DNA from: a virus
Taxonomy: Duplodnaviria > Heunggongvirae > Uroviricota > Caudoviricetes
Length of the DNA: 16,094 nt
Direction: 5' to 3' (one strand)
Virus record (IMG/VR): IMGVR_UViG_2778261454_000010
Location: 1 to 16,094 of that record
Below are positions 1-15,515 of the stretch, piece after piece (position 1 is the first letter of the stretch; each line of letters begins with the position of its first letter). The position numbers and the translations under genes were made by a program. Below the pieces are notes generated by a model. The model was given only the letters and a program-made list of their open reading frames with translations. It was not told the DNA's origin and did not search any database.

Positions 1-714
1 TCAGATTATAACCTTCTTCCAGTCTAATCCTCGGTCGTCAGCGTACTCGTCACTCATCCCATCAGTTGTATGACCGAGCAATGTTTTCACATCAATTCCC
101 TGCTTCTTGTATAGCCTCGAAGAGAGAGATCTCTGCTCATGAAAAGATGGTGGTGTGGACCCAGCAGGGAACTTCAGTCCTGATTCGTCTCTCGCGGTGT
201 AAAAATAGCGTGATATTGAGTTAACCTTGATTTTACCGCCAGGTAAGGCTGATCCATGAGCGACGGTATGATGTACAAGATATTTGCTGACTACACCGTC
301 TCTACACCTTGCTACTACTTCTCTCAACGACATGCCGATAGCATCAAGCCTCAGTGATAAAGGGATAGCAACCTTCGAGCCTGTCTTGTTCTGGTTGATG
401 TGGAGGTGATCATCCCAAATATCAGAGAACTTTAGGTCTACAATATCGCCCGCTCGCTGCCCTGTAACCAACGCCAGAAGCATCGCGTTTTGAGCTGCAT
501 CCTGCATCCTCTCGGCGTGCTCATAAATAATCTTCCACTCTTCAAGTGTCAGGCGTTTACGCTTCACCTTAGCAACAGGATTTCTGGCAGCTAATGCCGG
601 ATTGTAACCTGGTGGAACCTCGCCAGCATGTTGCGCTTCCTTGAAGACGTCGTTTAAAACAGCCCTGACAAGCTGCCCTATCGCAGGTACGCTCTTCGCC
701 TTCTTTGTGCCAGG
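1..714 (-). pseudogene. int: Lambda-family tyrosine integrase, C-terminal catalytic region only (about 140 N-terminal residues missing)
   Basis: The minus-strand frame is open from 714 to a TGA stop at 3..1. The translation (..KRLTLEEWKIIYEHAE..LLALVTGQRAGDIVDLKFSDI..HEQRSLSSRLY..LLGHTTDGMSDEYADDRG) aligns by eye with the lambda Int catalytic domain. An in-frame TAG lies at 715-717 and there is no in-frame ATG; the only possible start is GTG at 565-567. Confidence 0.8.
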
Positions 715-997
715 CTACAACGTCGGCCACTGGCTCGGCGTTAACTACCGGTGCTGGCGGGGCGGTGTATAGCGGCAAACCTTGCCCACCGCCTGAGAAT
801 TGGTTATGTCCGTTATATTCAATTTCGTCACCGTGAGCACATACCCACGCCACAGGCTCGGCGTCCATTGCCGCCAGCGCGATACGGAAAACCTGAGCCG
901 TCATGCTGTTTTCTGAGTGCTCATCGTGAGCCGGGTCAGTGAGAAAGCCCGTGATGAATACTCGAAGCTCATGCTCTTTTGTGATTGGGGTTGTCAT
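569..997 (-). CDS. Hypothetical protein; the first ~95 residues look protein-like, the C-terminal ~45 residues are read out of frame across the integrase 5' region
   Basis: Six-frame ORF whose 3' portion (569-714) overlaps the integrase frame in a different phase and translates to a Cys/Arg/Gln-rich tail (..RTCDRAACQGCFKRRLQGSATCWRGS..). The start overlaps the stop of the upstream HNH gene (994-997). Confidence 0.3.
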   Translation of the reverse strand: MTTPITKEHELRVFITGFLTDPAHDEHSENSMTAQVFRIALAAMDAEPVAWVCAHGDEIEYNGHNQFSGGGQGLPLYTAPPAPVVNAEPVADVVAWHKEGEERTCDRAACQGCFKRRLQGSATCWRGSTRLQSGISCQKSCC

Positions 998-1701
998 ATT
1001 TTACCGTTCTCCAGTTTTTCTCCCTCGCCAAAAAAATCTCCGTGATACTTTCTCCTAGCTTCCATAGAAACAAGGCCTGCAAGCTCAATATCATCGTACA
1101 ATCCAAGGGATAGCTTCCTGCCATCAACGCCGATTGTTACGTACCATTTGGAAAACTTTTTATGCCAACTAACACCTTTAATTCCGCTAGTGTTGTGTGA
1201 ATGAACCTTCTGGTTTCTTGCGTTGTCTGCCCTACTTGCGTTTCTCAGGTTTATCCATCTGTCATCATTTCTTACTCTATTGATATGATCCGCTTCTGTA
1301 GGGAATTTCCCGGGCATATACAGAAATGCAAGCCTTCCTGCTTTATATTCCTTACCATTAATTTTTATATGCCTATATCCAGTGTGATGAATGCACCCAG
1401 CGATATCTCCACACTTAAAACCTCCCTTTGTATTTTTAATCCGAGTAAATACACCTGTATCTGGGTTGTAATGCAGATGCTCTTTCAAGACGTCCTGAGT
1501 TACCAGCGCCAGCACGTTGGCTGGCGTCGCTTCATCGTGAAATGAGTTAAGCGCCGTTATGTCCGCATCAAGCTGGGTGCCTTCAGCGAGTGAGATATCG
1601 AAAAGATCGCCCTCTGGCATCACGCTCAGACGCTCATACGCTCCCGTCGCGTTCAGCGCCGCCGCTTTCATACGCTGCGCCAGTTCTGTTGTCATGCTCA
1701 T
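994..1701 (-). CDS. HNH endonuclease (HNH_3-like motif) with a C-terminal AP2-like DNA-binding segment; phage homing-endonuclease-like
   Basis: ATG at 1699-1701 is preceded by GGGAGG and overlaps the TGA of the upstream 69-aa gene (ATGA). The translation carries ..GYRHIKINGKEYKAGRLAFLY..EADHINRVRNDDRWINLRNASRADNARNQ.. (HNH-type) and ..GIKGVSWHKKFSKWYVTIGVDGRKLSLGLYDDIELA.. (AP2-like). Confidence 0.75.
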   Translation of the reverse strand: MSMTTELAQRMKAAALNATGAYERLSVMPEGDLFDISLAEGTQLDADITALNSFHDEATPANVLALVTQDVLKEHLHYNPDTGVFTRIKNTKGGFKCGDIAGCIHHTGYRHIKINGKEYKAGRLAFLYMPGKFPTEADHINRVRNDDRWINLRNASRADNARNQKVHSHNTSGIKGVSWHKKFSKWYVTIGVDGRKLSLGLYDDIELAGLVSMEARRKYHGDFFGEGEKLENGKI

Positions 1702-1907
1702 GCTGCCTCCCAGCAAATCTGAGTTTTATAGACGCTCTTAACGCGTTGCACTTTTCCGGCAACTTCAAGCTTCTTCAGTCTGCGCAATACGTATGCGGTA
1801 TCGAGAGGTCGGTAGTTATCTCGAAGCCAGTTCGTCACTACGTAGGTCATGCAGCGACCATGCTCATTCAGCACCTGAATGATTTCTTCATCGGTTGGCT
1901 TGTTCAT
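1698..1907 (-). CDS. Small hypothetical protein, 69 aa (possible winged-helix DNA-binding fold, inferred)
   Basis: ATG at 1905-1907 is preceded by CGAGGAG with an 8-nt spacer, directly after the methyltransferase TAA. Its stop overlaps the HNH gene start. The sequence (..MTYVVTNWLRDNYRPLDTAYVLRRLKKLEVAGKVQR..) looks helical and basic. Confidence 0.5.
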   Translation of the reverse strand: MNKPTDEEIIQVLNEHGRCMTYVVTNWLRDNYRPLDTAYVLRRLKKLEVAGKVQRVKSVYKTQICWEAA

Positions 1908-1922
1908 GCTGCTCGCTCCTCG

Positions 1923-2660
1923 TTATTCACCATCACACAGCATGGAGAATGCTGCCGCTGCCACTCTTGGAACTTGTCCATTGCCAAGGGCTTTAATTCT
2001 GTCCACCCGATGGGCCACCCCATGAACCACTCGACCCATTCCGGGTTCAACTGTCCATCCTGGGGTGGCTGCGACCCATCTGGAAGTGGACGCATCTTTA
2101 TTGCACTTGGCAAGTCCGGAGTTCTGCGTAAGCGCTCGCTTGGACAATCGCCCCGTATTGTTGCTTTCGCTGTAGGCCACAATCCACATCCTGTCTCTTT
2201 CATGGGGCGCTCCGCAGTTCGATGCTGAAATACGAAACCACTCACAGCCACACCCCATTTCGGCAAGGTTACCAATGACCACTGCAAGGCCTTTTCCTCT
2301 GAGTCGCGGCGAATTTTCCACGCAGACGAATGCAGGTCGTACCTCACTGACGATTCTCGCCATTTCTGCCCACAGTCCAGAACGGCGTCCATTGATGCCG
2401 GCACCATGACCATTTGCGCTAATGTCCTGGCATGGAAACCCGCCAGATATGACATCAACAATCCCTCTCCACGGCTTTCCGTCAAAACTGCACACGTCAG
2501 ACCAAATCGGGAAAGGGCGGAGAATTCCATCGTTTTGTCGTTGCGCGAGAACTTGTGCTGCGTAGGCATCACGTTCAACTGCGCATACTGTTCGCCAGCC
2601 AAGGAGATGCCCTCCGAGTATTCCTCCGCCAGCGCCTGCGAAAAGAGCCAACTCATTCAC
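1923..2660 (-). CDS. DNA (cytosine-5)-methyltransferase, small phage-type enzyme of about 245 aa
   Basis: GTG start at 2658-2660 with GGAGGT five nt upstream, overlapping the TGA of the upstream ORF. Motifs read in order: I ..ELALFAGAGGGILGG.., IV ..GGFPCQDIS.., VI ..FVCVENSP.., VIII ..GAPHERDRMWIVA.., X-like ..RIKALGNGQVPRVAAAAF... Stop TAA at 1923-1925. Confidence 0.85.
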   Translation of the reverse strand: MNELALFAGAGGGILGGHLLGWRTVCAVERDAYAAQVLAQRQNDGILRPFPIWSDVCSFDGKPWRGIVDVISGGFPCQDISANGHGAGINGRRSGLWAEMARIVSEVRPAFVCVENSPRLRGKGLAVVIGNLAEMGCGCEWFRISASNCGAPHERDRMWIVAYSESNNTGRLSKRALTQNSGLAKCNKDASTSRWVAATPGWTVEPGMGRVVHGVAHRVDRIKALGNGQVPRVAAAAFSMLCDGE

Positions 2661-3015
2661 CGTTACCTCCGCGCAGCTGCCTTGCCAGATATTCAAGAGC
2701 CATTGCCGGAACGCCGACATGTCCTGTGCACGCAAATTTCGTGAGCAAATGCTCAATGGCTTTATCAACACCCCGCGCCTCAGCTTCTCGCAGGATGCTG
2801 TCTGTTGCCGGAGTTTCATGACAGGCACACAGCAATTCATGAATTGTCTGCATATCGACAATATCGCCGTCCGGCTGCTGTGTTAAATTCCACCGCTTAT
2901 AAATCTGGACTGACTCATCAGCCAGTAATATCGCCGCCGACTTAATCGCCAAATTCTCAGCCACCAAAGCCTTCAAATGCTCCTGCAACTCCACACCCTG
3001 TGGACAGTTCGTCAC
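2653..3015 (-). CDS. Hypothetical phage early-region protein, probably 5'-truncated at the 3060-3075 junction
   Basis: The frame is open upstream to 3072 with no ATG; the annotated start is GTG at 3013-3015. The TGA stop overlaps the methyltransferase start. No recognisable motif. Confidence 0.4.
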   Translation of the reverse strand: MTNCPQGVELQEHLKALVAENLAIKSAAILLADESVQIYKRWNLTQQPDGDIVDMQTIHELLCACHETPATDSILREAEARGVDKAIEHLLTKFACTGHVGVPAMALEYLARQLRGGNGE

Positions 3016-3072
3016 TTCACGCGCTTTCTCAATCGTTGAGTGTGCTGCTGTTAGTTCGCCTGCATGGTCGAG

Positions 3073-3314
3073 TTACCGGTCTCACCAATTACCGTGATTG
3101 CGGTAATGGTCTGAAGATTGACCTGGTTACTAACCCTGAACTGCTGGAGAAAGACATCAATGCCGCGCGTTCTGCTGCATGGTTCTATGCCTCCAAAGGT
3201 TGCCTGAAGTACACCGATGACCTGGTGCGCATCACTCAGATTATCAATGGCGGGCAGAACGGCATTAACGACAGACGCGTGCGTTACGCCAAAGCGAAAG
3301 CGGTGATTGCATGA
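3073..3314 (+). pseudogene. Endolysin remnant: C-terminal ~80 aa of a GH19 (chitinase-like) phage lysozyme; catalytic N-terminal part missing
   Basis: The translation ..TGLTNYRDCGNGLKIDLVTNPELLEKDINAARSAAWFYASKGC..ITQIINGGQNGINDRRVRYAKAKAVIA matches the conserved C-terminal block of GH19 endolysins as I recall it. Upstream in-frame sequence (3000-3070) is not protein-like and overlaps the minus-strand ORF. The stop overlaps the spanin start (ATGA at 3311-3314). Confidence 0.6.
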
Positions 3315-3589
3315 GCATTGTAGAAATCATCATTGGTGTCATTGGCGCTATCTGTGTTGCCGCTGCTAGTGGGTTTGGTCTTGGCCACATTCACGGTACC
3401 AGCAAAGCAGAAGCGAAAGCCGATCAACAACGCACTGAAGAAAACGCTGCCGCCATGAAAAAAGCTGCAGATCGTTGTGTGGAAGTCATCAAGGAGACAA
3501 GAGATGTGCAGGAGAATGTTAGTCGCATGCCTGATGACGATGTTGATCGCGAGCTGCGCGAAAACTTCACCCGCCCCGGTGGTGATTGA
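3311..3589 (+). CDS. Rz-like inner-membrane spanin (i-spanin)
   Basis: The N-terminus (MSIVEIIIGVIGAICVAAASGFGLG) is a single hydrophobic TM helix, followed by a charged, helical periplasmic segment. It sits directly after the endolysin remnant with ATGA coupling. Confidence 0.6.
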   Translation: MSIVEIIIGVIGAICVAAASGFGLGHIHGTSKAEAKADQQRTEENAAAMKKAADRCVEVIKETRDVQENVSRMPDDDVDRELRENFTRPGGD

Positions 3590-3716
3590 TACCGGTTGCC
3601 TGTGGGCACGGATTGTCTATCTGACCAACAGCGATATTGACCTGCTGGATAAGCAGACGAAGCGCGACATCCTAGCGCATAACAAAGCGTGGCAGGCGAA
3701 CTGTCAGAAAAAATGA
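3504..3716 (+). CDS. Rz1-like outer-membrane lipoprotein spanin (o-spanin), overlapping the i-spanin in the +1 frame
   Basis: ATG at 3504 with AAGGAG seven nt upstream. The N-terminus MCRRMLVACLMTMLIASC carries a lipobox (I-A-S-C) and the mature part is Pro-rich. It begins inside the Rz-like gene and extends past its stop. Confidence 0.55.
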   Translation: MCRRMLVACLMTMLIASCAKTSPAPVVIDTGCLWARIVYLTNSDIDLLDKQTKRDILAHNKAWQANCQKK

Positions 3717-3731
3717 ACTAATTAATGCAGT

Positions 3732-4319
3732 TTATAAAAAAATCTCTTCTGCGCATAAAAGATAACTTTCGTAAAAAGTTATCCCAAGCTCTGCAATAAC
3801 TATTGGATTTTTAGAATTCACTTCTTGTCCTAAGTGCGACTGAGGAGGGTTGTATGTGATCCCACGGTTACGACATGGAACTGCCTCTACTGAGCTTTGA
3901 GTAACTTCAACTCTCATTGGTGAGCCTGGAACGATTGTTGCACCACCATTACTATCAAATGAAATTGATTTGATGTGAACCATGCCACCTTGCTTTTCTG
4001 GATAGATACTAAACCCGCCAGGAACATATTTAGAGGTATCAGCAATCCCATGATGTGCTGAATTTCTGGCTTGCTTGAGATAGATGAGTAAACTATCAGA
4101 ATCACGCAGGTAGTTTGTTTTTGATGAAAATGAAGGGTATTTCTTGTGCTGCGCAGCAGCTACTTTTATCTTACCGTATACGTTTTCAATGCGGCTCAAA
4201 AAATCGCTCCAAGCCTCATCGTACTCATCATATGACTTAGCATTCTTCATACGCTCAACGCAGCGCTTTGCTCTTACCAATTCTTTTCTTGAAGGAAGTA
4301 AGTCCATTACCGTCACCAT
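3732..4319 (-). CDS. Orphan hypothetical protein (195 aa) in an AT-rich cargo segment; function unknown
   Basis: Long ORF on the minus strand, convergent with the spanin genes. Sampled 60-nt lines in this segment are about 38-42% G+C versus about 55-67% in the structural genes. No signal peptide, TM segment or assignable catalytic motif. Alternative ATG at 4305-4307 has GGTGA upstream. Confidence 0.6.
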   Translation of the reverse strand: MVTVMDLLPSRKELVRAKRCVERMKNAKSYDEYDEAWSDFLSRIENVYGKIKVAAAQHKKYPSFSSKTNYLRDSDSLLIYLKQARNSAHHGIADTSKYVPGGFSIYPEKQGGMVHIKSISFDSNGGATIVPGSPMRVEVTQSSVEAVPCRNRGITYNPPQSHLGQEVNSKNPIVIAELGITFYESYLLCAEEIFL

Positions 4320-4444
4320 TTTTAGTAGAAATGAAAAGCAAAGCTAACTCTTCATGAAACTTTAATCAATTAGCCAATAACCGAACTACAAATTATCCCC
4401 ACAAACGGATAAGACAATCAATATACCCTCTAAAGGATAAAACT

Positions 4445-4645
4445 ATGACGCCATTAGTTCTGACAGCAGAGCAGATAAAATCTCTTGCAGAATTTGCGGA
4501 GCAGGAAGGTCAGCCGTTCTATACCATCACCCACTCAACCATCCCTGAGTTTGAATCAGAAAGTGGTGATGTTGTTCCGGCATATGAAGGGCTGATTGCC
4601 TACTCAGAGTCAGAGGAACACGGCGTTCTTCAGCTCGACGACTGA
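4445..4645 (+). CDS. Small, highly acidic hypothetical protein (66 aa; about 14 Asp/Glu against 1 Lys)
   Basis: ATG at 4445 with AAGGA about seven nt upstream. The translation is MTPLVLTAEQIKSLAEFAEQEGQPFYTITHSTIPEFESESGDVVPAYEGLIAYSESEEHGVLQLDD. First gene of a short operon that ends at the terminator at 4978-5000. Confidence 0.5.
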   Translation: MTPLVLTAEQIKSLAEFAEQEGQPFYTITHSTIPEFESESGDVVPAYEGLIAYSESEEHGVLQLDD

Positions 4646-4684
4646 ACTGCCATTACAGAAGCTCTTCATTCAGGGGCTTCGATA

Positions 4685-4960
4685 ATGACCTTGAAATCTA
4701 TGGCCTTATCCGAGCATACTTTAGCAACCCTCCGTGTTGGTGGGGTGTTAAAGGGGATTGTTATGCTTGATAATTATTTCTACGATAAAAGTGGTTTTGA
4801 GCAAAAAGACGAAGTTAAGCGAGAAAAAGCAGTAGCTGCTGTACTTGAAATCCTTAAAGTTTCTGCTGGTCACTCACCAAGCCACGTAATTATTAGTGCT
4901 CTTAAGAACGAAGTAAATGAAGCAGCGGATGCGATTCAAGGAGCATTGGATAAAAAGTAA
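4685..4960 (+). CDS. Hypothetical protein (91 aa), second gene of the cargo cassette
   Basis: ATG at 4685 with AGGGG eight nt upstream. The sequence is helical and Lys-rich at the C-terminus. Followed 18 nt downstream by a strong intrinsic terminator. Confidence 0.5.
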   Translation: MTLKSMALSEHTLATLRVGGVLKGIVMLDNYFYDKSGFEQKDEVKREKAVAAVLEILKVSAGHSPSHVIISALKNEVNEAADAIQGALDKK

Positions 4961-4977
4961 CTGAGATGAAATAACAT

Positions 4978-5000
4978 AAACCGCCTATGGGCGGTTTTTT
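4978..5000 (+). terminator. Rho-independent terminator
   Basis: Perfect 8-bp stem AAACCGCC / GGCGGTTT with loop TATG, followed by a T-run to 5000. Confidence 0.75.
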
Positions 5001-5136
5001 ACTGCCATCACTGTGGGTAGGCTCATCCTAATAGCAATATCCCCCGCAAGGGATAATTAACGTGATATCCCCGTCGGGGGATAAAATCATATTTAAGCCA
5101 CTGGTATCCGCTGGTGGCTTTTTTATTGGAGTGAAT

Positions 5137-5427
5137 ATGGCATCCAATTCACCGTGGCATAGCCTCTATAATTCCAAGCGCTGGTACCGACTCCGATATC
5201 ACCAGCTTCAGAAGCAGCCTCTCTGCGAGTTCCACCTCCGGCGCAATCAGGTTATAGCCGCCACGATCGTTGACCATATCACCCCGCACAAGGGTAACGA
5301 GGCGCTATTTCATGACCAGGACAATCTTCAGTCACTCTGCAAACGTTGCCACGACTCGGTAAAGCAGAGGATGGAGAAGGGTGGAACGGTCACCGAGTTC
5401 GATAATAAAGGCCGTGTTATCTGGTAA
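5137..5427 (+). CDS. HNH endonuclease, packaging-associated (HK97 gp74-like position next to the terminase genes)
   Basis: ATG at 5137 with GGAG five nt upstream. HNH signature in the translation: ..CEFHLRRNQVIAATIVDHITPHKGNEALFHDQDNLQSLCKRCHDSVKQ... Located immediately upstream of TerS and TerL. Confidence 0.8.
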   Translation: MASNSPWHSLYNSKRWYRLRYHQLQKQPLCEFHLRRNQVIAATIVDHITPHKGNEALFHDQDNLQSLCKRCHDSVKQRMEKGGTVTEFDNKGRVIW

Positions 5428-5439
5428 CAGGAGTAGTTG

Positions 5440-5649
5440 ATGCAAGACATGAAGATTGAATACCGTGATGGGAAGTTGATTGAGTTGAGCATTGATAGCG
5501 TGAGCTTTAAACATGCCACTGCAGTCTCCTTCAATCATGAGGTCGTTGAGATGCTGCCTACCATTACCCTCACATTGCCAATCGGCGTTGGTGATCGTCT
5601 GGTGCCCTCTGGCATACCTCACTCAAGCTTACACGTAATTGAGAAATGA
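5440..5649 (+). CDS. Small hypothetical protein (69 aa) between the HNH and TerS genes
   Basis: ATG at 5440 with AGGAG six nt upstream. No recognisable motif. Confidence 0.4.
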   Translation: MQDMKIEYRDGKLIELSIDSVSFKHATAVSFNHEVVEMLPTITLTLPIGVGDRLVPSGIPHSSLHVIEK

Positions 5650-5769
5650 TATCAATTCTCATATTTATTTTGGTAAGGGAGGGGGTGGGATAAAACTCTG
5701 GTACCAAATTCTTAAAGACCGCGCCCTCAACTCTTTTTTTAAAAACGTCCAGAAAAAAAGGAAAAACCG

Positions 5770-6204
5770 ATGGCACAGCGAGGCAGAAAGTCTCTGGCTG
5801 CGACGTCTGCTGTCTCGTTGCCGGCACTGGCTGAAAGCAGGCTGCAGCCGTCCATTCATCTGAGCGATCCGGAAATTAATGTATGGGTAAGGCTCGTTAA
5901 TGACAATCCAGCTAGTTCATTCACTGAAACTCATCGAGACATGATGGAGATGTACTGCCGCCATGTTGTTCAGGCCAGAATAATCACCACTCAGCTTGAA
6001 GAGTTTGAACTGGAGTGGCTATCGCGCGAGGACGGACTTAAGCGGTACGACAAGCTTCTTGCCATGCGCGAGCGTGAAGTGCGTTCGGCATCTTCACTGG
6101 CAACACGTTTAAGGATCACCCGCCAGGCTACTGCCGACCCAAAAACAGTTGGCCGAGCGCACAACAATCTGGCTCGGGAGAAAAAACCCTGGGAAATTGA
6201 TTAA
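5770..6204 (+). CDS. Terminase small subunit (P27/HK97 gp1-like, by position and N-terminal basic segment)
   Basis: ATG at 5770 after an A-rich AAGGA region. The N-terminus MAQRGRKSLAATS.. is basic. The gene lies directly upstream of the large terminase gene. Confidence 0.7.
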   Translation: MAQRGRKSLAATSAVSLPALAESRLQPSIHLSDPEINVWVRLVNDNPASSFTETHRDMMEMYCRHVVQARIITTQLEEFELEWLSREDGLKRYDKLLAMREREVRSASSLATRLRITRQATADPKTVGRAHNNLAREKKPWEID

Positions 6205-6213
6205 GGCTCTTTG

Positions 6214-7746
6214 ATGGCAAAAAAAAATCTGACAAGAGCCGAGAGAAATATTCTCTGGTGCGAAAGAAATATTGTTATTCCTGAAGGAAAGTTCGTGGGC
6301 CAGCCACTGAAAATGGCTGAGTTCATGAAGGATGATTTTAGGGCTATTTTCGATAACAAGCATGGCACACGTCGCGCAATTATCAGCCGTGGGCGAAAGA
6401 ACGCCAAAACGGTAGAGACCGCCATGCTGATGCTGCTCTACCTGGTGGGGCCGGAGGCGGCGCCGAACTCGCAGCTGTATTCTGCCGCACGCTCGCGTGA
6501 CCAGGCGGCCATTCTGTTTAACCTGGCCTCCAAGATGTGCCGGATGAATCCGGTGCTCATGCAGTATGTGGCGATAAAGGACTCGGCGAAAGAAATTCAC
6601 TGCCCCGAACTGGGTTCTTATTATCGGGCGCTGAGCGCAGAGGCCACGACTGCCTATGGTTTCTCGCCTCGATTTGTCGCGCATGATGAACTGGGACAGG
6701 TTCGTGGGCCCCGTGATCCCCTTTATGAAGCACTGGAAACTGCGACTGCTGCTCAGGATAACCCTATCTCGGTGATTATCAGCACTCAGGCGCCCGATGC
6801 GAGCGATCTACTCAGCCTGCTGATTGATGATGGACTGACCGGTGCTGACCCGCGCACGGTGGTCCGTCTACAGACGGCCCCGGAAGATATCGATCCTTTC
6901 TCCGTTGACGCCATAAGGCTGGCAAACCCGGCCTTCGATGTGTTTATGAACCAGAAAGAAGTGCTTGATATGGCCGCCAGCGCGAAGCGCCTCCCGTCAC
7001 GACAGGCTGAGTTTGAGAACCTTGTGCTGAATCGCAGGGTTGAAGCTAAAAGTCCTTTCGTCAGTCAGACAGTCTGGCACATGAATAAAGAAGAACCCGG
7101 CGAACTGGCAGGGGCTACCGTCTGGGGCGGGCTGGACCTTTCCAGTGTCTCGGACCTTACCGCACTGGTACTCAACACAACCCAGGGTGATGTGCACTGT
7201 AAGTTCTGGCTACCTGAAGAGGGGCTGGCGGACAAGGCGCGTAACGATCGAGTGCCTTATGACATCTGGGCCAGGCAGGGTTTTCTCAATACGACACCCG
7301 GAAAGGCCATTGAATATGCATTTATTGCGCGCGAAATGCGGCGCGTTTTCGACATTTGCAATGTCAGGGCGCTGGCGTTCGACCGTTACAACATGCGTTT
7401 CCTTCGCCCACATCTAATAGACGCAGGATTCACGGAAACTGAGCTCGAGCGGTTCGTGGAATTCGGCCAGGGCTTTGTCTCCATGTCACCTGCGCTGAGG
7501 GAGCTGGAAGCCAAGCTACTCGGAGCGCAGCTTAAACATGGCAACCATCCGATCCTCGAAATGTGCGCCAAAAACGCCACGGTTATTTCTGATCCCGCCG
7601 GAAACCGAAAGTTTGTGAAAGGTAAATCAAGCGGGCGTATCGATGGAATGGTTGCTCTGGCGATGTCAATCGGCGCCCAGACGAGTGATGAGGTGGAGGA
7701 TCCAGGCGACGTCAATGATTTCATTTATAACTTCTTGAGCGTGTAA
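6214..7746 (+). CDS. Terminase large subunit (ATPase plus nuclease)
   Basis: 510-aa product with an ATPase region (..RFVAHDELGQV.. Walker-B-like) and a C-terminal nuclease region. Standard position after TerS. The ATG at 6214 is preferred over the TTG at 6211. Confidence 0.9.
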   Translation: MAKKNLTRAERNILWCERNIVIPEGKFVGQPLKMAEFMKDDFRAIFDNKHGTRRAIISRGRKNAKTVETAMLMLLYLVGPEAAPNSQLYSAARSRDQAAILFNLASKMCRMNPVLMQYVAIKDSAKEIHCPELGSYYRALSAEATTAYGFSPRFVAHDELGQVRGPRDPLYEALETATAAQDNPISVIISTQAPDASDLLSLLIDDGLTGADPRTVVRLQTAPEDIDPFSVDAIRLANPAFDVFMNQKEVLDMAASAKRLPSRQAEFENLVLNRRVEAKSPFVSQTVWHMNKEEPGELAGATVWGGLDLSSVSDLTALVLNTTQGDVHCKFWLPEEGLADKARNDRVPYDIWARQGFLNTTPGKAIEYAFIAREMRRVFDICNVRALAFDRYNMRFLRPHLIDAGFTETELERFVEFGQGFVSMSPALRELEAKLLGAQLKHGNHPILEMCAKNATVISDPAGNRKFVKGKSSGRIDGMVALAMSIGAQTSDEVEDPGDVNDFIYNFLSV

Positions 7747-7748
7747 AA

Positions 7749-9026
7749 ATGGCAGATACCGATTACAGCATTGACCTGCGAACGCGATCGCCATTCTGGG
7801 CGCGCATGGCCTCCATCCTGACAGGGGGCCGCCTTGTGACGCCTGACAAGGGCTCGCAGATGGCAGGAACGTCCGCGCACGGTGTGGTTGGCGACTCCGT
7901 AGTGACTGACGAGCGAAATATGCAAATCAGCACTGTGTGGGCATGCATCAGGCTTATCTCTACCGTGACCGCATCATTACCCCTTGATGTCTACCAGACC
8001 AAAGACAATCAGAGAAGCAAGGTACCTGGCACACACCCTCTCGCGAGGTTACTGCGCTTCCGTCCCAACAATTTCATGACCGCGCTGGAGTTTCGTGAGG
8101 CCATGACCATGCAGCTTTGTGCTTATGGAAACGCCTACGCGCATGTGGAGCGAAACAGCGTCGGCGACGTTATCAGCATGGTTCCGCTGATGAGCGCCAA
8201 TATGGAAGTGCGGCTCAGTGAAAACGGCAAAACCATTATCTACCGCTACCAGCGTGATACTGAATATGCCAATTTTTCGCAGAAAGAAATTTTCCATCTT
8301 AAGGGTTTTGGCTTCAACGGACTGACCGGCCTGTCTCCGCTGGCGTTCAGCGCGAAGTCTGCAGGTGTCGCCATTGCCATGGAAGACAATCAGCGTGAGT
8401 TTTTCGCAAACGGCGCGAAGTCTCCTCAGATTCTGATGACCGATGGCAAGGTGCTTACCAAAGAGCAGCGTGGACAGCTGGAGGAAAACTTCAAGGAGAT
8501 TGCTGGCGGCCCGGTTAAAAAGCGCCTCTGGATCCTGGAGAGCGGTTTTACGACTCAAGCTATTGGCGTCTCTCCTCAGGACTCGGAAATTCTGGCCGCG
8601 CGAAAGTTTCAGGTTGCCGAGCTGGCGCGGTTCTATGGTGTACCGCCGCACCTGGTCGGTGATGTGGAAAAAACAACATCGTGGGGCTCGGGGATTGAGC
8701 AGCAAAACCTGGGCTTTCTCCAGTACACCCTCAAGCCCTATCTCGATCGGTGGGAGTACAGCATTGAACGCTGGCTGGTTAAAGAGTCCGAACAGGGCAC
8801 TATTCACGCTGAGCATAACCTCGATGGGCTGCTGCGCGGTGATTCAACAAGCCGGGCATCGTTTATGCAGATCATGGTTAACACCGGGATCCGAACCGTT
8901 AACGAAGTGCGGCGACTGGACAACCTGCCGCCTCTGCCAGGGGGTGACGTTGCCACCCGCCAGTCGCAGAACGTACCCATTACCGACCTTGGAACAAACA
9001 ATAAGTCCCTCAATGAAGGGACTTAA
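7749..9026 (+). CDS. Portal protein (HK97 family)
   Basis: 425-aa ORF starting 2 nt after the TerL stop. Size, position and sequence character match HK97-type portals. Confidence 0.85.
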   Translation: MADTDYSIDLRTRSPFWARMASILTGGRLVTPDKGSQMAGTSAHGVVGDSVVTDERNMQISTVWACIRLISTVTASLPLDVYQTKDNQRSKVPGTHPLARLLRFRPNNFMTALEFREAMTMQLCAYGNAYAHVERNSVGDVISMVPLMSANMEVRLSENGKTIIYRYQRDTEYANFSQKEIFHLKGFGFNGLTGLSPLAFSAKSAGVAIAMEDNQREFFANGAKSPQILMTDGKVLTKEQRGQLEENFKEIAGGPVKKRLWILESGFTTQAIGVSPQDSEILAARKFQVAELARFYGVPPHLVGDVEKTTSWGSGIEQQNLGFLQYTLKPYLDRWEYSIERWLVKESEQGTIHAEHNLDGLLRGDSTSRASFMQIMVNTGIRTVNEVRRLDNLPPLPGGDVATRQSQNVPITDLGTNNKSLNEGT

Positions 9027-9031
9027 TTTTT

Positions 9032-9712
9032 ATGGGGGCCATGATGCCTGACATTCACAAAACACTGGCTTTTGACCAGACCGAAATTAAGTTCACCGGC
9101 GACGGTGAAAGCGGCATCTTTGAGGGGTACGCCTCCGTTTTTAATAATACTGATTCTGACGGCGATATTATCCTTCCCGGCGCATTCAGCGGTGTTATTT
9201 CCGGTCAGAGCCGTAAGGTGGCGATGTTCTTTAACCATCAGACGCGCGCTATCCCGGTCGGCAAATGGGATTCCATGCATGAGGATGAAAAAGGTTTGTT
9301 TGTCCGTGGGCAACTCACTCCAGGACTAAGCCTCTCTGAAGACCTGAAAGCGGCGATGAAACATGGCACCGTTGATGGGATGTCAGTGGGATTCTCTGTT
9401 GGCCCTGATGATTACACCGTTGGTTCGTCCGGCCTCATCTTCAAAAATATTTCGTATCTGCGGGAAATCAGTGTCTGCACTTTCCCGGCCAACGAGCTGG
9501 CGGGTATCACCGCCATGAAGTGCATCGACAGTATCAAAACCATTCGTGACGCGGAGGCCTGGCTGAGGGATTCAGTCGGCTTAACGCGCGCAGAAGCGCA
9601 GGCCTTTATTGCCCGCGTGAAGTCCGCAGGCCGGAGCGAGTCCGGTAGCGGCGACATTGACGCGCTGGCACAGCGCATAACTTCATTTGCCGCTAATCTG
9701 CGGAATACATAA
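9032..9712 (+). CDS. Prohead maturation protease (HK97 gp4-like)
   Basis: 226-aa ORF between the portal and capsid genes. The N-terminal region (..FEGYASVFNNTDSDGDIILPGAFSG..FFNHQTRAIPVGKW..) is typical of HK97-family prohead proteases. Confidence 0.85.
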   Translation: MGAMMPDIHKTLAFDQTEIKFTGDGESGIFEGYASVFNNTDSDGDIILPGAFSGVISGQSRKVAMFFNHQTRAIPVGKWDSMHEDEKGLFVRGQLTPGLSLSEDLKAAMKHGTVDGMSVGFSVGPDDYTVGSSGLIFKNISYLREISVCTFPANELAGITAMKCIDSIKTIRDAEAWLRDSVGLTRAEAQAFIARVKSAGRSESGSGDIDALAQRITSFAANLRNT

Positions 9713-9723
9713 CGGAGTACCAC

Positions 9724-10887
9724 ATGTCTGAATTAGCAACCCTCGAAAAAGCGATTGAGAATTCACAGAAAGAAGTGAAAGAACTCATCGAAGAGCAGCG
9801 TAAATCCATCAGCCAGAACGGCGAAATCAACAAACAGCTGCAGACCGACCTGACCAAAGCGCAGGAAGAGCTGAAAACCACCGGCTCCCGCCTGTTCGAT
9901 CTGGAACAGAAGCTGGCCGGAAACTCACCTGACCAGACCACCCAGAAGTCCTTTGCGGAGCGCGTTTCTGAAGACCTGATGAAAGGCTGGGACGGCTCCC
10001 GTACCAAAGCGAAAGTCACCAGTTTCGATAAGGCGATCGGTTCTGGCGCTGCATCCGCCGGTGTGCTTGTACAGCCCCAGCAGGTACCTGGTATTCTGAT
10101 GCCGGGCCTGCGTCGCCTGACCGTTCGTGACCTGCTGGCACAAGGGCGCATCACCAGTAACGCGCTGGAATATGTGCGTGAAAATGTGTTCACCAACGCC
10201 GCCGCACCGGTTGCTGAAGGTACCCTCAAACCAGAGAGTAATATCACGTTCACCAAAGAAACAGCGAATGTCAAAACCATTGCCCACTGGATCCAGGCAT
10301 CACGCCAGATTATGGATGACGCCCCGGCGCTGCAGTCCTATATCAACTCCCGCATGATGTACGGTCTCGCGCTGGTGGAAGAGAATCAGATGCTTAACGG
10401 TGATGGCACCGGCGACAACCTCCAGGGGTTGAACGTGGTGGCGAACGAATACGAAACCGCACTTAACGCGACCGGGGATACTGGTGCTGATGTTCTGGCG
10501 CATGCCATCTACCAGGTGTCGCTAAGTGAGTTCGAAGCCGACGGCATCATTCTCAACCCGGCTGACTGGCATCGCATCGCATTGCTGAAGGACGCCAATG
10601 GCAATTACATCCTCGGCGGCCCTCAGGCGTTTGCGTCAAAAGTGCTCTGGGGCCTGCCGGTTGTATCAACAACCGCGCAGACGGCAGGAAAGTTCACCGT
10701 TGGTGCATTTGGCCTGGCGTCTCAGGTGTGGGACCGCATGGATGCCACTATCGAAATCAGTAACCAGGATCGCGATAACTTCGTTAAAAACATGCTGACC
10801 ATTCTGTGCGAAGAGCGTCTGGCTCTGGCGCACTACCGTCCCGCAGCTATCGTCACTGGCGATATTGCGATTTCTTCCGGCGAATAA
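9724..10887 (+). CDS. Major capsid protein (HK97 fold) with N-terminal delta/scaffolding domain
   Basis: ATG at 9724 with GGAG upstream. The first ~100 aa form a charged coiled-coil-like region (delta domain), followed by a capsid-fold region (..AEGTLKPESNITF..). Standard position after the protease. Confidence 0.9.
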   Translation: MSELATLEKAIENSQKEVKELIEEQRKSISQNGEINKQLQTDLTKAQEELKTTGSRLFDLEQKLAGNSPDQTTQKSFAERVSEDLMKGWDGSRTKAKVTSFDKAIGSGAASAGVLVQPQQVPGILMPGLRRLTVRDLLAQGRITSNALEYVRENVFTNAAAPVAEGTLKPESNITFTKETANVKTIAHWIQASRQIMDDAPALQSYINSRMMYGLALVEENQMLNGDGTGDNLQGLNVVANEYETALNATGDTGADVLAHAIYQVSLSEFEADGIILNPADWHRIALLKDANGNYILGGPQAFASKVLWGLPVVSTTAQTAGKFTVGAFGLASQVWDRMDATIEISNQDRDNFVKNMLTILCEERLALAHYRPAAIVTGDIAISSGE

Positions 10888-10895
10888 CAGCAGGG

Positions 10896-10918
10896 CGCGG
10901 TCAGAAATGGCCGCGTTT
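10896..10918 (+). terminator. Weak stem-loop after the capsid gene (possible partial terminator)
   Basis: CGCGG - 10-nt loop - CCGCG followed by TTT. Short stem and short T-tract, so likely low efficiency. Confidence 0.3.
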
Positions 10919-10923
10919 ACGAT

Positions 10924-11166
10924 ATGAAAATTAAAGCTCTCCGTATGTTCTCACATTACCACCTCGGAACTGTATCCCAAGGCGAGAGCCGGGTGGTGAA
11001 GAAAGAGATCGGCGACGCGCTGGTGAAACTGCGCCTTGCCGAAGAGATTGAACCCGAAAAGGCGGAAACTTCCGTTCCTGAAAAGCCTGTAAAAACCAAA
11101 GCCGGGGGTAAAGGTGGAAATAAGCGCGGAGCAGATGGCGCTGATAAAGGCGCATCTGAGGGTTGA
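10924..11166 (+). CDS. Small hypothetical protein after the capsid gene (Lys/Gly-rich C-terminus)
   Basis: 80-aa ORF with no clear Shine-Dalgarno sequence. Its 3' end overlaps the start of the connector gene. Confidence 0.35.
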   Translation: MKIKALRMFSHYHLGTVSQGESRVVKKEIGDALVKLRLAEEIEPEKAETSVPEKPVKTKAGGKGGNKRGADGADKGASEG

Positions 11167-11440
11167 TAGTGACGCTGAAGATTCGCTAATCACCGCTTAT
11201 ACATCAGCGGCCGTCGATTATGTTGAGCAGTTCTGCGACGGCGCGCTGGTGGAATCGTTAACGCCGCCGGAGGAAGGGGAAATGCCACCTCGTGAGATCC
11301 TGTTTACTCCCGGTATCTGGGCAGCAATGCTTTTGCTGATTGCACACTGGTATGCGAACCGCGAAGCAGCAGCGCAGAACCTCACGGAAATGCCTTTAGG
11401 TGTTGAGGCGCTGTTAATACGGCACCGGAGGTGGCACTGA
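11114..11440 (+). CDS. Head-tail connector (gp6-like adaptor) protein
   Basis: Translation ..EISAEQMALIKAHLRVDSDAEDSLITAYTSAAVDYVEQ.. matches the characteristic N-terminus of gp6-like connectors. The start is uncertain: GTG at 11114 or ATG at 11135. Confidence 0.65.
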   Translation: MEISAEQMALIKAHLRVDSDAEDSLITAYTSAAVDYVEQFCDGALVESLTPPEEGEMPPREILFTPGIWAAMLLLIAHWYANREAAAQNLTEMPLGVEALLIRHRRWH

Positions 11441-11500
11441 TGGCATGTTCCGGGTGCGCCGCCCGTCGAGAGTGGCTTAAAAAGTGGATGAAAATCGCCT

Positions 11501-11686
11501 ATGAACGAGCAACAGGTAAAAAATCTGCTGGCAGCAATGACCGCGCAGACCAACGCAATGAACCGCCTGGCGGAGTCAAATGAAGCCCTGGTCGCTTTAC
11601 TCTATCAATCCCTCGCTGATGACATCGAAACGACAACGTTAGATTCCCCGGTGCCGACCTACCTAAGCGGAAAGCCCAGGGGGTAG
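11501..11686 (+). CDS. Small hypothetical head-tail region protein
   Basis: 61-aa helical ORF whose TAG stop is immediately followed by the ATG of the head-closure gene. Weak ribosome-binding site. Confidence 0.35.
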   Translation: MNEQQVKNLLAAMTAQTNAMNRLAESNEALVALLYQSLADDIETTTLDSPVPTYLSGKPRG

Positions 11687-11688
11687 CG

Positions 11689-12021
11689 ATGCAGGCTGGA
11701 AAGCTCAATAAACGAATCACGCTTCAGAAGCCTGTTAAAACCCAGAGCCCTGTTACCGGCGCAGTAGTTAGTGGATGGGCTGATGTGTCTGAGCTTTGGG
11801 CTAACGTTGCCGATTTGTCAGCCCGTGACTTTGTTGCCGCGCAAGCGGGGCAGAGCGAGGTAACAACGCGGATCACTATCCGCTGGCGTGATGATGTCAC
11901 GGATAAGCATCGCATTCTTTACCGTGGGCGTGTTTACGACATTCAGGGTGTACTGGAAGATGATAAAAGCGGACGGGAATATCTGACGCTACCCTGCTCG
12001 CGAGGTGTTAACGATGGCTGA
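11689..12021 (+). CDS. Head closure / head-tail joining protein (SPP1 gp16-like)
   Basis: ATG at 11689 with AGGGGG upstream. The translation ..KRITLQKPVKTQ..TRITIRWRDDVTDKHRILYRGRVYDIQGV..LTLPC.. fits the family pattern. Confidence 0.65.
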   Translation: MQAGKLNKRITLQKPVKTQSPVTGAVVSGWADVSELWANVADLSARDFVAAQAGQSEVTTRITIRWRDDVTDKHRILYRGRVYDIQGVLEDDKSGREYLTLPCSRGVNDG

Positions 12022-12553
12022 TGGCATTGATTTTAGTATAACCGGGGTCGATTCACTTCTGGGGAAGCTGGACAGTATCAGCGATGATCTGCGCCGCCGT
12101 GGTGGTCGGGCAGCACTTCGTAAGGCGGCAAATGTGATTGCCGCTAAAGCCAGAGATAACGCAGCCCGTGTGGATGATCCGCTAACCAAGGAATCGATTA
12201 GCAAAAATATTGTGGCCAGATGGAGCAATGTTACATTCCGAAGAACCGGTAATCTGGCTTTCAGGGTTGGCGTTTTGGGCGGAGCCATTTCGTATGCTGA
12301 TTCAAGAGAAAACAGGCGGAAAGGTCGTGCGGGAAGATTGTATTACACCCCCGGCAATTCACAAAATCCAGGCGGGAATACCTGGTACTGGCGTTTTTTG
12401 GAGTTTGGCACAGAAAATATGCCAGCCCAGCCCATTCTTCGCCCGGCAGCGCAAGGCAGTGTGGACGAAGTGGTAAGCGTATTCGCCTCGGAATACGAAA
12501 AGTCTATTGACCGTGCCATCAGGCGCGCGGCGAAAAAAGGAGTACCCCCGTGA
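12014..12553 (+). CDS. HK97 gp10-like head-tail/tail component protein
   Basis: ATG at 12014 with GAGGTG six nt upstream, overlapping the end of the previous gene. Size and position are consistent with the family. Confidence 0.6.
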   Translation: MADGIDFSITGVDSLLGKLDSISDDLRRRGGRAALRKAANVIAAKARDNAARVDDPLTKESISKNIVARWSNVTFRRTGNLAFRVGVLGGAISYADSRENRRKGRAGRLYYTPGNSQNPGGNTWYWRFLEFGTENMPAQPILRPAAQGSVDEVVSVFASEYEKSIDRAIRRAAKKGVPP

Positions 12554-12915
12554 TTGCGCCGATCTTTATCGTCTGCGCCGCAAGTCCTCCGGTGGTTGCG
12601 CTACTGGGCGGTGACACACTGCGCCTGTATCCGTTCGGCCAGCAGGACGACAACGTGGTCTATCCCTATGTGGTCTGGCAGAACATCACCGGTTCTCCGG
12701 AGAACTACCTTGCCCAGCGCCCTGATGCAGACTTTTTCACGCTGCAGGTGGATGCATATGCCGACACAGTGGATGAAGTGATTGCCGTGGCTACTGCGCT
12801 GCGGGATGCCATTGAGCCGCACGCGCATATCACGCGCTGGGGCGGACAGGAAAGAGATCCCGAAACAAAACGCTATCGCTATTCGTTCGATGTGGACTGG
12901 ATAGTCAATCGATAA
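12550..12915 (+). CDS. Tail completion / tail terminator protein (DUF3168-like)
   Basis: GTG at 12550 overlaps the upstream TGA, with AAGGAG eight nt upstream. 121-aa product in the expected slot before the major tail gene. Confidence 0.55.
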   Translation: MIAPIFIVCAASPPVVALLGGDTLRLYPFGQQDDNVVYPYVVWQNITGSPENYLAQRPDADFFTLQVDAYADTVDEVIAVATALRDAIEPHAHITRWGGQERDPETKRYRYSFDVDWIVNR

Positions 12916-12925
12916 GAACCTTCCC

Positions 12926-12949
12926 AACCGGCCTTGAGCCGGTTTTTTT
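12926..12949 (+). terminator. Rho-independent terminator
   Basis: Stem AACCGGC / GCCGGTT with loop CTTGA, followed by a run of seven T. Confidence 0.7.
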
Positions 12950-12966
12950 ATGACCGGAGATAATAA

Positions 12967-13464
12967 ATGTCTGTATTAACTCAAGGCACACAACTCTTTG
13001 TGCTTGCCAGTGGCGCGGTGAGCGAAATCGAGTGTATCACTGCATTTTCGCCTGGTAGTAACCCTGCCGACCAGATTGAAGACACGTGTCTTTCTGAAAA
13101 GTTTGACCGCTCCTATAAGCGGGGCCTACGAACTCCCGGGACCGCCTCACTCACTCTGAATGCCGACCCAAAAAATACCAGCCACGTGATGCTGCACAAC
13201 CTGTCGATTTCCGATGATGAGAGCGATCAGGATCTGACGTTTGCGATTGGCTGGGCCGATGGTACAGCGTCACCAACAGTTGCTACCGAAGAGGCAAGCG
13301 GTGCTGTTGATGGGCTGGTGCTCCCGGACAGCCGTACGTGGTTTGTTTTTAAAGGTTACGTCTCCGACTTCCCTTTTGATTTTGCAGCAAACACGGTCGT
13401 CTCCACCTCCGCATCTATCCAGCGTTCCGGTTCTGCGGTGTGGGTTCCTAAGGCAGCTTCTTAA
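12967..13464 (+). CDS. Major tail (tube) protein
   Basis: ATG at 12967 with GGAGA upstream. 165-aa beta-rich protein in the position immediately before the G/G-T chaperone genes. Confidence 0.6.
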
Positions 13465-13468
13465 ACTG

Positions 13469-13487
13469 ATGGGGCTTGATGCCCCAT
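13469..13487 (+). promoter_or_regulatory. Stem-loop between the major tail and chaperone genes
   Basis: ATGGGGC - TTGAT - GCCCCAT, a 7-bp perfect stem followed by TTTC; a possible attenuator or partial terminator. Confidence 0.3.
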
Positions 13488-13501
13488 TTCGAGAGACAAA
13501 A

Positions 13502-14495: not shown

Positions 14496-14505
14496 GGAGT
14501 TGATT

Positions 14506-15443: not shown

Positions 15444-15476
15444 CGATATAGTCGGTTCAAACATTTATTAAACTTC

Positions 15477-15500
15477 AAACCCGCTCCGGCGGGTTTTTTT
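15477..15500 (+). terminator. Rho-independent terminator
   Basis: Perfect 8-bp stem AAACCCGC / GCGGGTTT with loop TCCG, followed by a run of seven T. Confidence 0.75.
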
Positions 15501-15515
15501 ATGTCTGGAGTAAAT

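Follow-up and report, generated by a model that had tools for sequence, protein, structure and literature searches.

What does the pair of small genes found between the lysis and packaging genes of the viral record IMGVR_UViG_2778261454_000010 represent, a single functional unit or two genes that came to lie together? The whole stretch analysed (positions 1 to 16,094 of that IMG/VR record, 16,094 nucleotides, here the window) carries on its plus strand two short open reading frames (ORFs), namely ORF1, coding for a strongly acidic protein of 66 amino acids (aa), and ORF2, at first taken as a 91-aa product. A previous interpretation made from the letters alone (the sequence-only reading) had proposed that both form one self-contained, independently transcribed two-gene cassette. 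This proposal did not hold, as no co-occurrence of the two genes was observed outside the lineage of the window, and the homology breakpoints were located at a hairpin lying between them. We estimate at roughly 70% the probability that the locus consists of two separate single-gene accessory modules joined at this hairpin, which would act in the late messenger RNA (mRNA) as a processing site or an exonuclease barrier.

The set of ORF1 loci used in the comparison (n = 106) derived from 3 named phages, 23 bacterial genomes (one genome per species) and 80 IMG/VR records, and no ORF2 homolog was present within the flanks (up to 6 kb) of any of them. Similarly, ORF1 homologs were absent from all nine distinct ORF2 loci (phage ZF40, four IMG/VR contigs, Enterobacter bugandensis, two metagenome contigs and a Salmonella lineage). 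Adjacency of ORF1 and ORF2 was confined to the window's own lineage (loci L005-L008 in our numbering, 100% identical). Phages with HNH, TerS and TerL proteins 88-98% identical to those of the window were found to carry either ORF1 without ORF2 (L035, L037) or ORF2 without ORF1 (L113, L117). Pairwise blastn comparisons gave the following module limits in window coordinates:

3709-3718: end of the lysis block, in several loci
4392/4393-4687: ORF1 homology, in four independent comparisons
4651/4653-4998/5004: ORF2 homology, against L112 and L116
4682-5000: ORF2 homology, against L119
4723-5000: ORF2 homology, against L113 and L117
5093: start of the packaging block, in several loci

Module 1 (4392-4687) would comprise a leader, ORF1 and the hairpin at its 3' end, and module 2 (about 4682-5000) a promoter-like leader, a 65-aa version of ORF2 and an intrinsic terminator. 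Their elements are listed below:

4392-4444, plus strand: leader of the ORF1 module, with a small TTATCC..GGATAA hairpin and a Shine-Dalgarno sequence; aligns with the leaders of Klebsiella- and E. coli-type ORF1 loci
4445-4645, plus strand: ORF1, 66 aa, N15 gp56 / PHROG 9518 family; cargo gene in the same orientation as the late operon
4648-4690, plus strand: cargo-terminal hairpin of 43 nucleotides (nt), from folding, a covariance model and covariation
4691-4720, plus strand: promoter-like site TTGAAA-18 nt-CATACT, from a scan (9/12 consensus matches); directly 3' of the hairpin and upstream of ORF2
4763-4960, plus strand: ORF2, 65 aa, PHROG 5901 family; start ATG at 4763, Shine-Dalgarno sequence AAGGGGA at 4751-4757
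4978-5000, plus strand: intrinsic terminator of the ORF2 module; stem 4978-4985 with 4990-4997, T-run to 5000

The small size of both ORFs, together with their adjacency on the same strand and the terminator that flanks them in this prophage lineage, could be taken as signs of a functional pair, either toxin-antitoxin-like or of the regulator-effector type, cotranscribed from 4320-4444 and stopped at 4978-5000. We consider such a pair highly improbable, since it is at odds with the absence of co-occurrence in the 106 and nine loci described above, with the mosaic breakpoints between the two genes, and with a spacer of 117 nt that holds the structured hairpin and the promoter-like site 4691-4720. 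Furthermore, neither protein matched a toxin or antitoxin family in Pfam, NCBIfam, PADLOC or PDB, no significant fold match was obtained, and no plus-strand promoter-like site was found 5' of ORF1. The suggestion of a toxin-antitoxin-like module, lacking a conserved pairing, is therefore dropped.

The expression signals of ORF1 were not the ones previously assumed. A promoter had been placed in the AT-rich region 4320-4444; however, the promoter scan of this region gave no plus-strand site, its sole match being on the minus strand and facing a 195-aa ORF from which ORF1 is read divergently, as had been described. In addition, the segment 4392-4444 corresponds to the conserved ORF1 leader, which contains the Shine-Dalgarno sequence AAGGA at 4433-4437 and whose fold is weak (-6.4 kcal/mol, z -1.8). 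In phages with various lysis-cassette types (N15, mEp390, Klebsiella phages), ORF1 usually comes first behind the spanin genes, on their strand. Because in most phages only 50-60 nt separate ORF1 from the spanin genes, leaving no space for a promoter, ORF1 is most likely made from the Q-antiterminated late transcript. It lacks a canonical terminator and ends in the hairpin, which has no U-tract.

Regarding ORF2, the 91-codon frame at 4685-4960 does exist, but its predicted product had to be shortened. The conserved protein starts at Met27 of this frame, a residue invariant in the alignment of homologs, whereas the 26 preceding residues cannot be aligned between homologs; the match to PHROG 5901 is limited to residues 27-91, the most abundant homolog (P0058, from Salmonella) is 65 aa long, and the upstream frame is shut within 0-12 codons in four of the nine homolog loci. 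The invariance of Met27, the extent of the PHROG match, the closed upstream frames and the Shine-Dalgarno sequence at 4751-4757 place ORF2 at 4763-4960, with 65 aa. The ATG at 4685-4687 is the 3' end of the conserved hairpin, so that the start of ORF2-type genes is often placed about 26 codons too far upstream, at an extra start codon that belongs to the end of an upstream structure.

The signals around this shortened ORF2 would suit a gene with its own transcription. Six enterobacterial loci share the ORF2 leader from the 3' arm of the hairpin onwards, including TTGAAA-18 nt-CATACT and the Shine-Dalgarno sequence, and this conservation is non-coding, since the loci do not keep the frame with respect to the hairpin ATG. 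The -35 hexamer and the 18-nt spacing are preserved in L112, L116 and L119, and the site is weaker in L113 and L117. The terminator at 4978-5000, which the sequence-only reading had identified, proved to be real (-11.8 kcal/mol, z -3.4, followed by T6), and an equivalent terminator is located about 20 nt past the ORF2 stop codon in all nine homolog loci, including that of ZF40 gp38 (AACCGCC-N4-GGCGGTTTTTT). Within the leader, a small hairpin (CCCUCC-GUGUU-GGUGGGG) is conserved at 4721-4750, immediately 5' of the Shine-Dalgarno sequence. When 4646-4770 is folded to minimum free energy, this small hairpin joins a longer stem in which AUG 4763 is paired, and the leader stem may exert translational control.

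Morons are extra genes, reportedly set out by Juhala and co-workers in 2000, that carry their own promoter and terminator amid conserved late genes, bor and lom of phage lambda being examples. ORF2 resembles the lambdoid morons in its promoter-like site, its short leader, its conserved intrinsic terminator and its patchy presence between lysis and terminase genes. The terminator is kept in 9/9 loci and the gene is patchy between conserved neighbours, with the promoter-like site defined by consensus only. On the basis of this anatomy (promoter-like site, leader and own conserved terminator) we infer that ORF2 is a moron-like gene, expressible from the prophage on its own. ORF1 departs from that model, as a promoter of its own and a canonical terminator are both lacking, and the ORF2 promoter differs from those of lambdoid morons in being a consensus match only. 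The function of ORF2 cannot be inferred beyond this moron character. Its AlphaFold2 model (pLDDT 77) is a two-helix hairpin with helices at residues 16-37 and 40-64, with no match in PDB or BFVD. A distant relationship of ORF2 to DUF2560, whose gene comes after ORF1 in Klebsiella phages, or to Acb2, another helical hairpin, was considered and discarded (hhalign probability <=0.2%).

The element that joins both modules, the hairpin at 4648-4690, is a structure maintained by selection. It has the form CAUUAC-A-[variable stem]-loop-[stem]-GAUAAUG and comes after the ORF1 stop codon in most loci; its parts are an outer stem CAUUA/UAAUG, a 2x2 internal loop CA/GA and a variable inner stem of 9-10 bp. 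The window copy folds at -15.6 kcal/mol (z -3.8) and was the single significant match of the covariance model in the window (47.9 bits, E 3e-11). In an alignment of 31 distinct sequences, 93.9% of the cells were paired, versus 35-43% in slid controls. Compensatory double changes were observed at 14 of the 17 pairs, and the covariation score was 0.60, versus 0.25 in shuffles, none of the 500 shuffles scoring as high. The outer stem covaries too (AUUCUG/CAGAAU in Serratia), and the internal loop CA/GA was found in 30 of the 31 sequences. As G.U pairs outnumber A.C pairs (71 vs 6) in this alignment, the fold is that of the late-operon sense strand. Other interpretations of the same bases were tried and rejected. 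The conserved GATAAT of the 3' arm was rejected as a -10 box, the only -35-like hexamer being 23 nt from it, and the hairpin ATG as a conserved start codon, the frame to the next gene not being conserved. In HK97-type phages, cos lies between the HNH and TerS genes, and the hairpin was discarded as a cos site because cos is expected about 750 nt or more downstream.

The same covariance model gave 113 matches in 1 Mb of related loci, nearly all of them in the orientation of the late operon and frequently two or three to a locus. When the full genomes of ZF40 and mEp390 were scanned with the filters off, each gave a single match, in the post-lysis region. Copies outside the window include the following:

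ZF40 (L125), 21739-21781: hairpin
mEp390 (L126), 36401-36443: hairpin
phi80 prophage of strain DH10B (L134), 3501-3537: hairpin
strain Nissle (L135), 3501-3537: hairpin

The position of the hairpin relative to the preceding gene is tightly kept, as the distance between the stop codon of that gene and the hairpin ranged from -2 to +9 nt across 17 clusters of upstream proteins, with one exception at +13 nt; for 13 further matches there was no upstream ORF of at least 30 codons. The upstream genes are varied, with at least 15 unrelated cargo families represented. By number of loci they correspond to the ORF1 family (52), DUF2560 (11), the Acb2/Tad1 family (6) and DUF826 (3), in addition to a P22-antirepressor-like protein, the Mom-like gp36 of ZF40 and several unknown proteins. 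In phi80, mEp390 and several Klebsiella prophages a 37-nt subtype of the hairpin has the same sequence (100% identity), ZF40 differing slightly (97%); the subtype also occurs in 94 of the 5426 complete genomes of E. coli, those of DH10B, DH5alpha and Nissle among them. The element is thus carried, through phi80, by DH5alpha and DH10B, and also by Nissle, and it is unannotated there, as it was in every record examined. Decayed remnants were detected in L112, L116 and L119; in phage N15 (L002), whose gp56 overlaps the next gene, the covariance model gave no match; and in the Pectobacterium ORF1 loci a canonical terminator takes the place of the hairpin.

Rfam 15 gave no match over 4648-4690 even at E values up to 10, and no description of the hairpin or of the ORF1 family was found in the searchable literature, which leaves out most subscription journals. 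As far as Rfam, record annotations and that literature go, a covarying, strand-specific hairpin that tags the 3' ends of many cargo genes is novel. As a separate observation, a 100% match to the enterobacterial hairpin core was found at 35846-35882 of Elizabethkingia phage EKP1 (OM284015.1, H77), whose recorded host belongs to the Bacteroidota and is unexpected for this element; a mis-assigned host or contamination could account for it.

With regard to its function, the hairpin would act in the long Q-antiterminated late mRNA, where it might constitute an RNase III-type processing site or a barrier to 3' exonucleases that stabilises and insulates the message of each cargo gene. Its conserved arms might also supply a short patch of homology where cargo genes are swapped; the hairpin coincides with the mosaic breakpoints and lies only in the post-lysis cargo region. 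RNase III processing hairpins are known from phage T7 (R0.3, R1.1) and from lambda sib. The cargo hairpin resembles them in being intergenic, in extending over some two turns of helix that contain a small internal loop, and in punctuating a polycistronic transcript after coding regions. There is no sequence relation to the T7 or sib hairpins, and the loop is a symmetric 2x2 loop, compared with a larger asymmetric bubble in T7. In N15, gp56 belongs to the same family and occupies the same position as ORF1 but overlaps the next gene and lacks the hairpin.

A different kind of RNA-level element has to be considered. The hairpin might be a transcription element (a terminator without U-tract, a pause site or an insulator) that would halt transcripts lacking antitermination behind each cargo gene in the lysogen and that Q-modified polymerase would read through during lytic growth, and a GC-rich inner stem right after the stop codon, together with the canonical terminator that replaces the hairpin in Pectobacterium, would agree with it, as would the similarity of the 3' arm of a true terminator at 5095-5120 to one hairpin subtype. 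Still, the consensus has no T-run and its 3' flank GAUAAUG is itself paired with CAUUAC; most hairpin-bearing cargo, such as ORF1 after Rz1, has no promoter of its own whose transcription would need termination; and an invariant CA/GA loop is foreign to terminators. We regard this explanation as possible although unlikely.

The alternative at the DNA level is a recombination site similar to integron attC, folded on one strand, recognised by way of its conserved outer boxes and the unpaired CA/GA bases, and used by a recombinase for the insertion or swapping of single-gene cassettes. Integron attC sites are 57-141 nt long, carry RYYYAAC/GTTRRRY cores and are used by the IntI integrase. The likeness is apparent: each is a structured, strand-specific site at the 3' end of a promoterless cassette, arranged in arrays (of two or three in the case of the hairpin, in strict strand orientation), with conserved outer arms and unpaired bases, and with an inner stem that varies while its structure is kept. 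Moreover, the module boundaries fall at the hairpin, and the 37-nt core is identical amid differing flanking genes in phi80, Klebsiella phages and mEp390. Unlike attC, the hairpin measures 37-43 nt, has arms CATTAC/GATAATG and no GTTRRRY core, and the junction positions are not fixed. The variable left limits of the ORF2 module (4651, 4682, 4723) fit homologous exchange better, and decayed remnants persist in L112, L116 and L119. Neither the window nor the called genes of the examined loci include an IntI-type gene, and no dedicated recombinase is linked to the hairpin, only ordinary phage integrases of differing families. Altogether, we judge a recombinase-used site very unlikely.

The proposal of short exchange homology in the arms has a precedent in the PeSL motifs (promoter-early stem-loops) of T4-type phages, for which a similar proposal was made (PMC2839356). 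In PeSL cassettes, a strong early promoter of the sigma-70 type is combined with a terminator stem-loop (Arbiol et al. 2010, PMC2839356). Like the hairpin, they present a short conserved stem-loop motif repeated between small non-essential ORFs in a hyperplastic region, and the motifs mark differences in gene content between related phages (PMC2839356). PeSLs are known from T4-type phages, whereas the hairpin is found in temperate lambdoid-type phages and ZF40 and contains neither an internal promoter nor a terminator T-run; its invariant internal loop, its position at the 3' end of each ORF and its location in the late operon also distinguish it from PeSLs. The hairpin belongs with the repeated boundary or regulatory motifs around phage cargo, a kind already known, and it reveals that the cargo stretch between lysis and packaging genes is organised by a repeated, structurally constrained element.

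Several observations weigh against the reading of two modules joined at an RNA-level hairpin. The related loci were retrieved mostly through ORF1, and the census of cargo genes, including the 52 loci of the ORF1 family, is biased towards it. The RNA-level role is carried by the strand bias and the G.U pairs, yet folded single-stranded DNA would tolerate these as well. The putative ORF2 promoter, with its 9/12 consensus match, is no more conserved than its flanks. Finally, as Q, the holins and half of the endolysin gene are gone from the window prophage, the expression of ORF1 here may be nil.

A more ambitious interpretation would see in the hairpin the signature of an unrecognised cassette system in temperate Enterobacterales phages, with late-operon arrays of single genes that each end in this element, control at the mRNA level combined with cassette exchange, and cargo largely devoted to counter-defence. 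We regard it as rather improbable; if it were true, Acb2 would be the one identified example and the N15 gp56 family the commonest uncharacterised cargo, and searches for new anti-defence genes could take the hairpin as their flag. Should the hairpin generally tag exchangeable late-operon cargo, it would provide a cheap, sequence-independent handle for new accessory genes, perhaps counter-defence ones. The aca genes served likewise in finding anti-CRISPRs.

Both modules carry real, conserved phage genes that are accessory and are neither structural nor lysis genes, in agreement with the sequence-only reading, which had viewed them as accessory cargo; their presence is patchy, and both are conserved as reading frames in relatives. 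Homology searches assigned the two proteins to the PHROG 9518 and 5901 families, without a characterised match for either, so that ORF1 and ORF2 are ordinary members of phage families already known yet uncharacterised. PHROG 9518 covers ORF1 end to end (E 1.4e-34). ORF1 is 64-77% identical to N15 gp56, mEp390 gp53 and a Klebsiella phage protein; the identity with N15 gp56 (NP_046952) is 64% over the full length, and that gene is likewise located directly after the lysis genes. The family is intact at about 66 aa in 49 clusters from a word-index search and in 68 representatives from an exhaustive profile search. It is a small one (68 cluster representatives out of 1.84 billion), with members from Klebsiella, Citrobacter, Enterobacter, Serratia, Pectobacterium, Providencia and others. 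Some members (P0074-P0106) are extended by 50-100 aa at the N-terminus and others by as much as about 150 aa at the C-terminus; no Pfam domain was found in any of these extensions, and some of them may be mis-called starts.

The AlphaFold2 model of ORF1 (pLDDT 80) contains one helix and three to four strands, and neither its fold nor its sequence matched any characterised protein. No match to ORF1, ORF2 or the 195-aa protein was obtained in Pfam, NCBIfam or PADLOC, and PDB profile searches with ORF1 and ORF2 gave nothing below E 0.05. The ORF1 sequence contains neither a signal peptide nor a membrane segment.

Position offers a tentative clue to what ORF1 does. In L113, L117 and L118, which have the packaging genes of the window, the gene in the place of ORF1 matches the Pfam family PF24729 Acb2/Tad1 (62 bits, cut-off 27), with the same Rz1 terminator and Shine-Dalgarno sequence upstream and the same hairpin downstream as ORF1. 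ORF1 has an Acb2-like gene in the adjoining cassette in L019, L066 and L103. Acb2 proteins act as sponges for CBASS cyclic-nucleotide signals. The genes concerned, all in phages with which the window has its packaging genes in common, are:

L113, 5595-5885: Acb2/Tad1-family gene in the slot of ORF1
L117, 1102-1392: Acb2/Tad1-family gene in the slot of ORF1
L118, 1372-1665: Acb2/Tad1-family gene in the slot of ORF1
L019, 6321-6602: Acb2/Tad1-family gene in the cassette next to ORF1
L066, 7333-7587: Acb2/Tad1-family gene in the cassette next to ORF1
L103, 6611-6844: Acb2/Tad1-family gene in the cassette next to ORF1

DNA-modification genes are also found in this neighbourhood. In ZF40, a Mom-like modification gene (gp36) and HolE adjoin the ORF2 homolog; downstream of N15 gp56 lie genes for a DUF4406 protein and a Dcm methylase; and glycosyltransferases are among the neighbours in the same region of mEp390. 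Because ORF1 shares its slot or array with Acb2-type anti-CBASS sponges and DNA-modification genes, counter-defence against the host immune system is the single most likely role for ORF1, although we hold it at less than even odds. The previous suggestion of anti-defence is thus borne out for the slot, through Acb2 in sister phages, while for ORF1 itself it is plausible by position only. Acb2/Tad1 sponges and ORF1 are alike in being small late-region cargo in the same hairpin-delimited slot or in a neighbouring cassette; nevertheless, Acb2 is a helical hairpin and ORF1 is predicted to be alpha+beta, and no homology of ORF1 or ORF2 to Acb2 was detectable (no Pfam match to PF24729; hhalign probabilities of 1.5% and 0.1%, respectively, against the alignment of the slot-mate Acb2). 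The counter-defence role has further to contend with the non-defence genes carried by the same arrays (antirepressor-like, DUF826, DUF2560), with the absence of similarity between ORF1 and any known anti-defence protein, and with late expression, which is unusual among anti-restriction proteins.

The composition of ORF1 calls to mind one particular form of counter-defence, a DNA-mimic anti-restriction protein of the Ocr/ArdA type. The protein is indeed small and, as had been noted from the letters, strongly acidic, with 14 Asp/Glu residues, a single Lys/Arg and a pI of 4.05, and the neighbouring cargo of its relatives has anti-restriction themes (DNA methylases, Mom). However, a product of the late operon, where its position would put ORF1, would appear after the incoming DNA had already been restricted, and several acidic positions vary across the family. 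ORF1 showed no fold or sequence similarity to known DNA mimics either, and we consider a DNA mimic distinctly unlikely.

It is also conceivable, though again not likely, that ORF1 serves the late programme of the phage itself, in the timing of lysis or in packaging. Its location, mostly first after the spanins and on the same strand across lysis-cassette types, would suit this role. On the contrary, its absence, or its replacement by Acb2, in phages with near-identical lysis and packaging genes indicates that ORF1 is dispensable and exchangeable, and the lack of a signal peptide or membrane segment also speaks against this role. The N15 gp56 family is a first candidate for functional study.

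The genomic setting of the modules agrees with their accessory character. The window covers part of an HK97-like lambdoid Escherichia coli prophage; E. coli assemblies and metagenomes carry the exact 91-codon ORF2 product and 100% identical DNA. The order of genes is minus-strand early-left genes, a GH19 endolysin fragment, Rz, Rz1, the antisense 195-aa ORF, ORF1 and ORF2, followed on the packaging side by HNH endonuclease, TerS, TerL, portal, protease and capsid. The features preceding ORF1 are as follows:

3000-3314: C-terminal fragment of the GH19 endolysin
3311-3589: Rz
3477-3716: Rz1
3732-4319, minus strand: 195-aa ORF (191 aa from its annotated start), PHROG 23516; outside both module homology blocks

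This gene order places ORF1 and ORF2 between lysis and packaging genes, in a hypervariable cargo slot. In lambdoid phages, the stretch from lysis to packaging is a known dumping ground for cargo. The ORF1/ORF2 region is rare among finished genomes: near-identity DNA searches with 3600-5200 against complete E. coli genomes and a phage collection recovered the flanks, Rz and HNH only.

The 195-aa gene had been put forward as a possible target of regulation by the adjacent module. Its family occurs in antisense orientation directly after the spanins in Enterobacter, Leclercia, Klebsiella and Citrobacter prophages that lack ORF1 and ORF2, which disposes of that idea. The gene is an independent antisense cargo in a bor-like position after Rz/Rz1, corresponding to that of bor in lambda, and not a partner of ORF1. 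It may be a moron expressed in the lysogen.

The window prophage is a deletion derivative over positions 1-3073, as identity to the intact relative L005 begins at 3073, within the endolysin gene. The Q antiterminator is lost together with the late promoter region, the two holins and the first (5') half of the endolysin gene, and the genes that adjoin the deletion break are early-left ones (DNA methylase, HNH_3, Exc). Another, larger deletion is found in the relative L006, with its junction at window position 3349.

Two tandem TATCCC-N-GGGATA hairpins (5038-5055 and 5066-5083) were observed between the ORF2 terminator and the HNH module, against a chance expectation of 0.01, and this exact pattern is rare in other loci; a weaker TTATCC..GGATAA version (4393-4412) begins the ORF1 leader. 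Just 5' of the HNH gene, at the left edge of the packaging module, lies the terminator-like hairpin 5095-5120 (within 5093-5126), whose 3' arm (GCTGGTGGCTT) is similar to one subtype of the cargo hairpin. A 94% identical copy of the region 5093-5126 is located in mEp390 (L003, 4370-4403), between the ORF1 hairpin and a glycosyltransferase gene.

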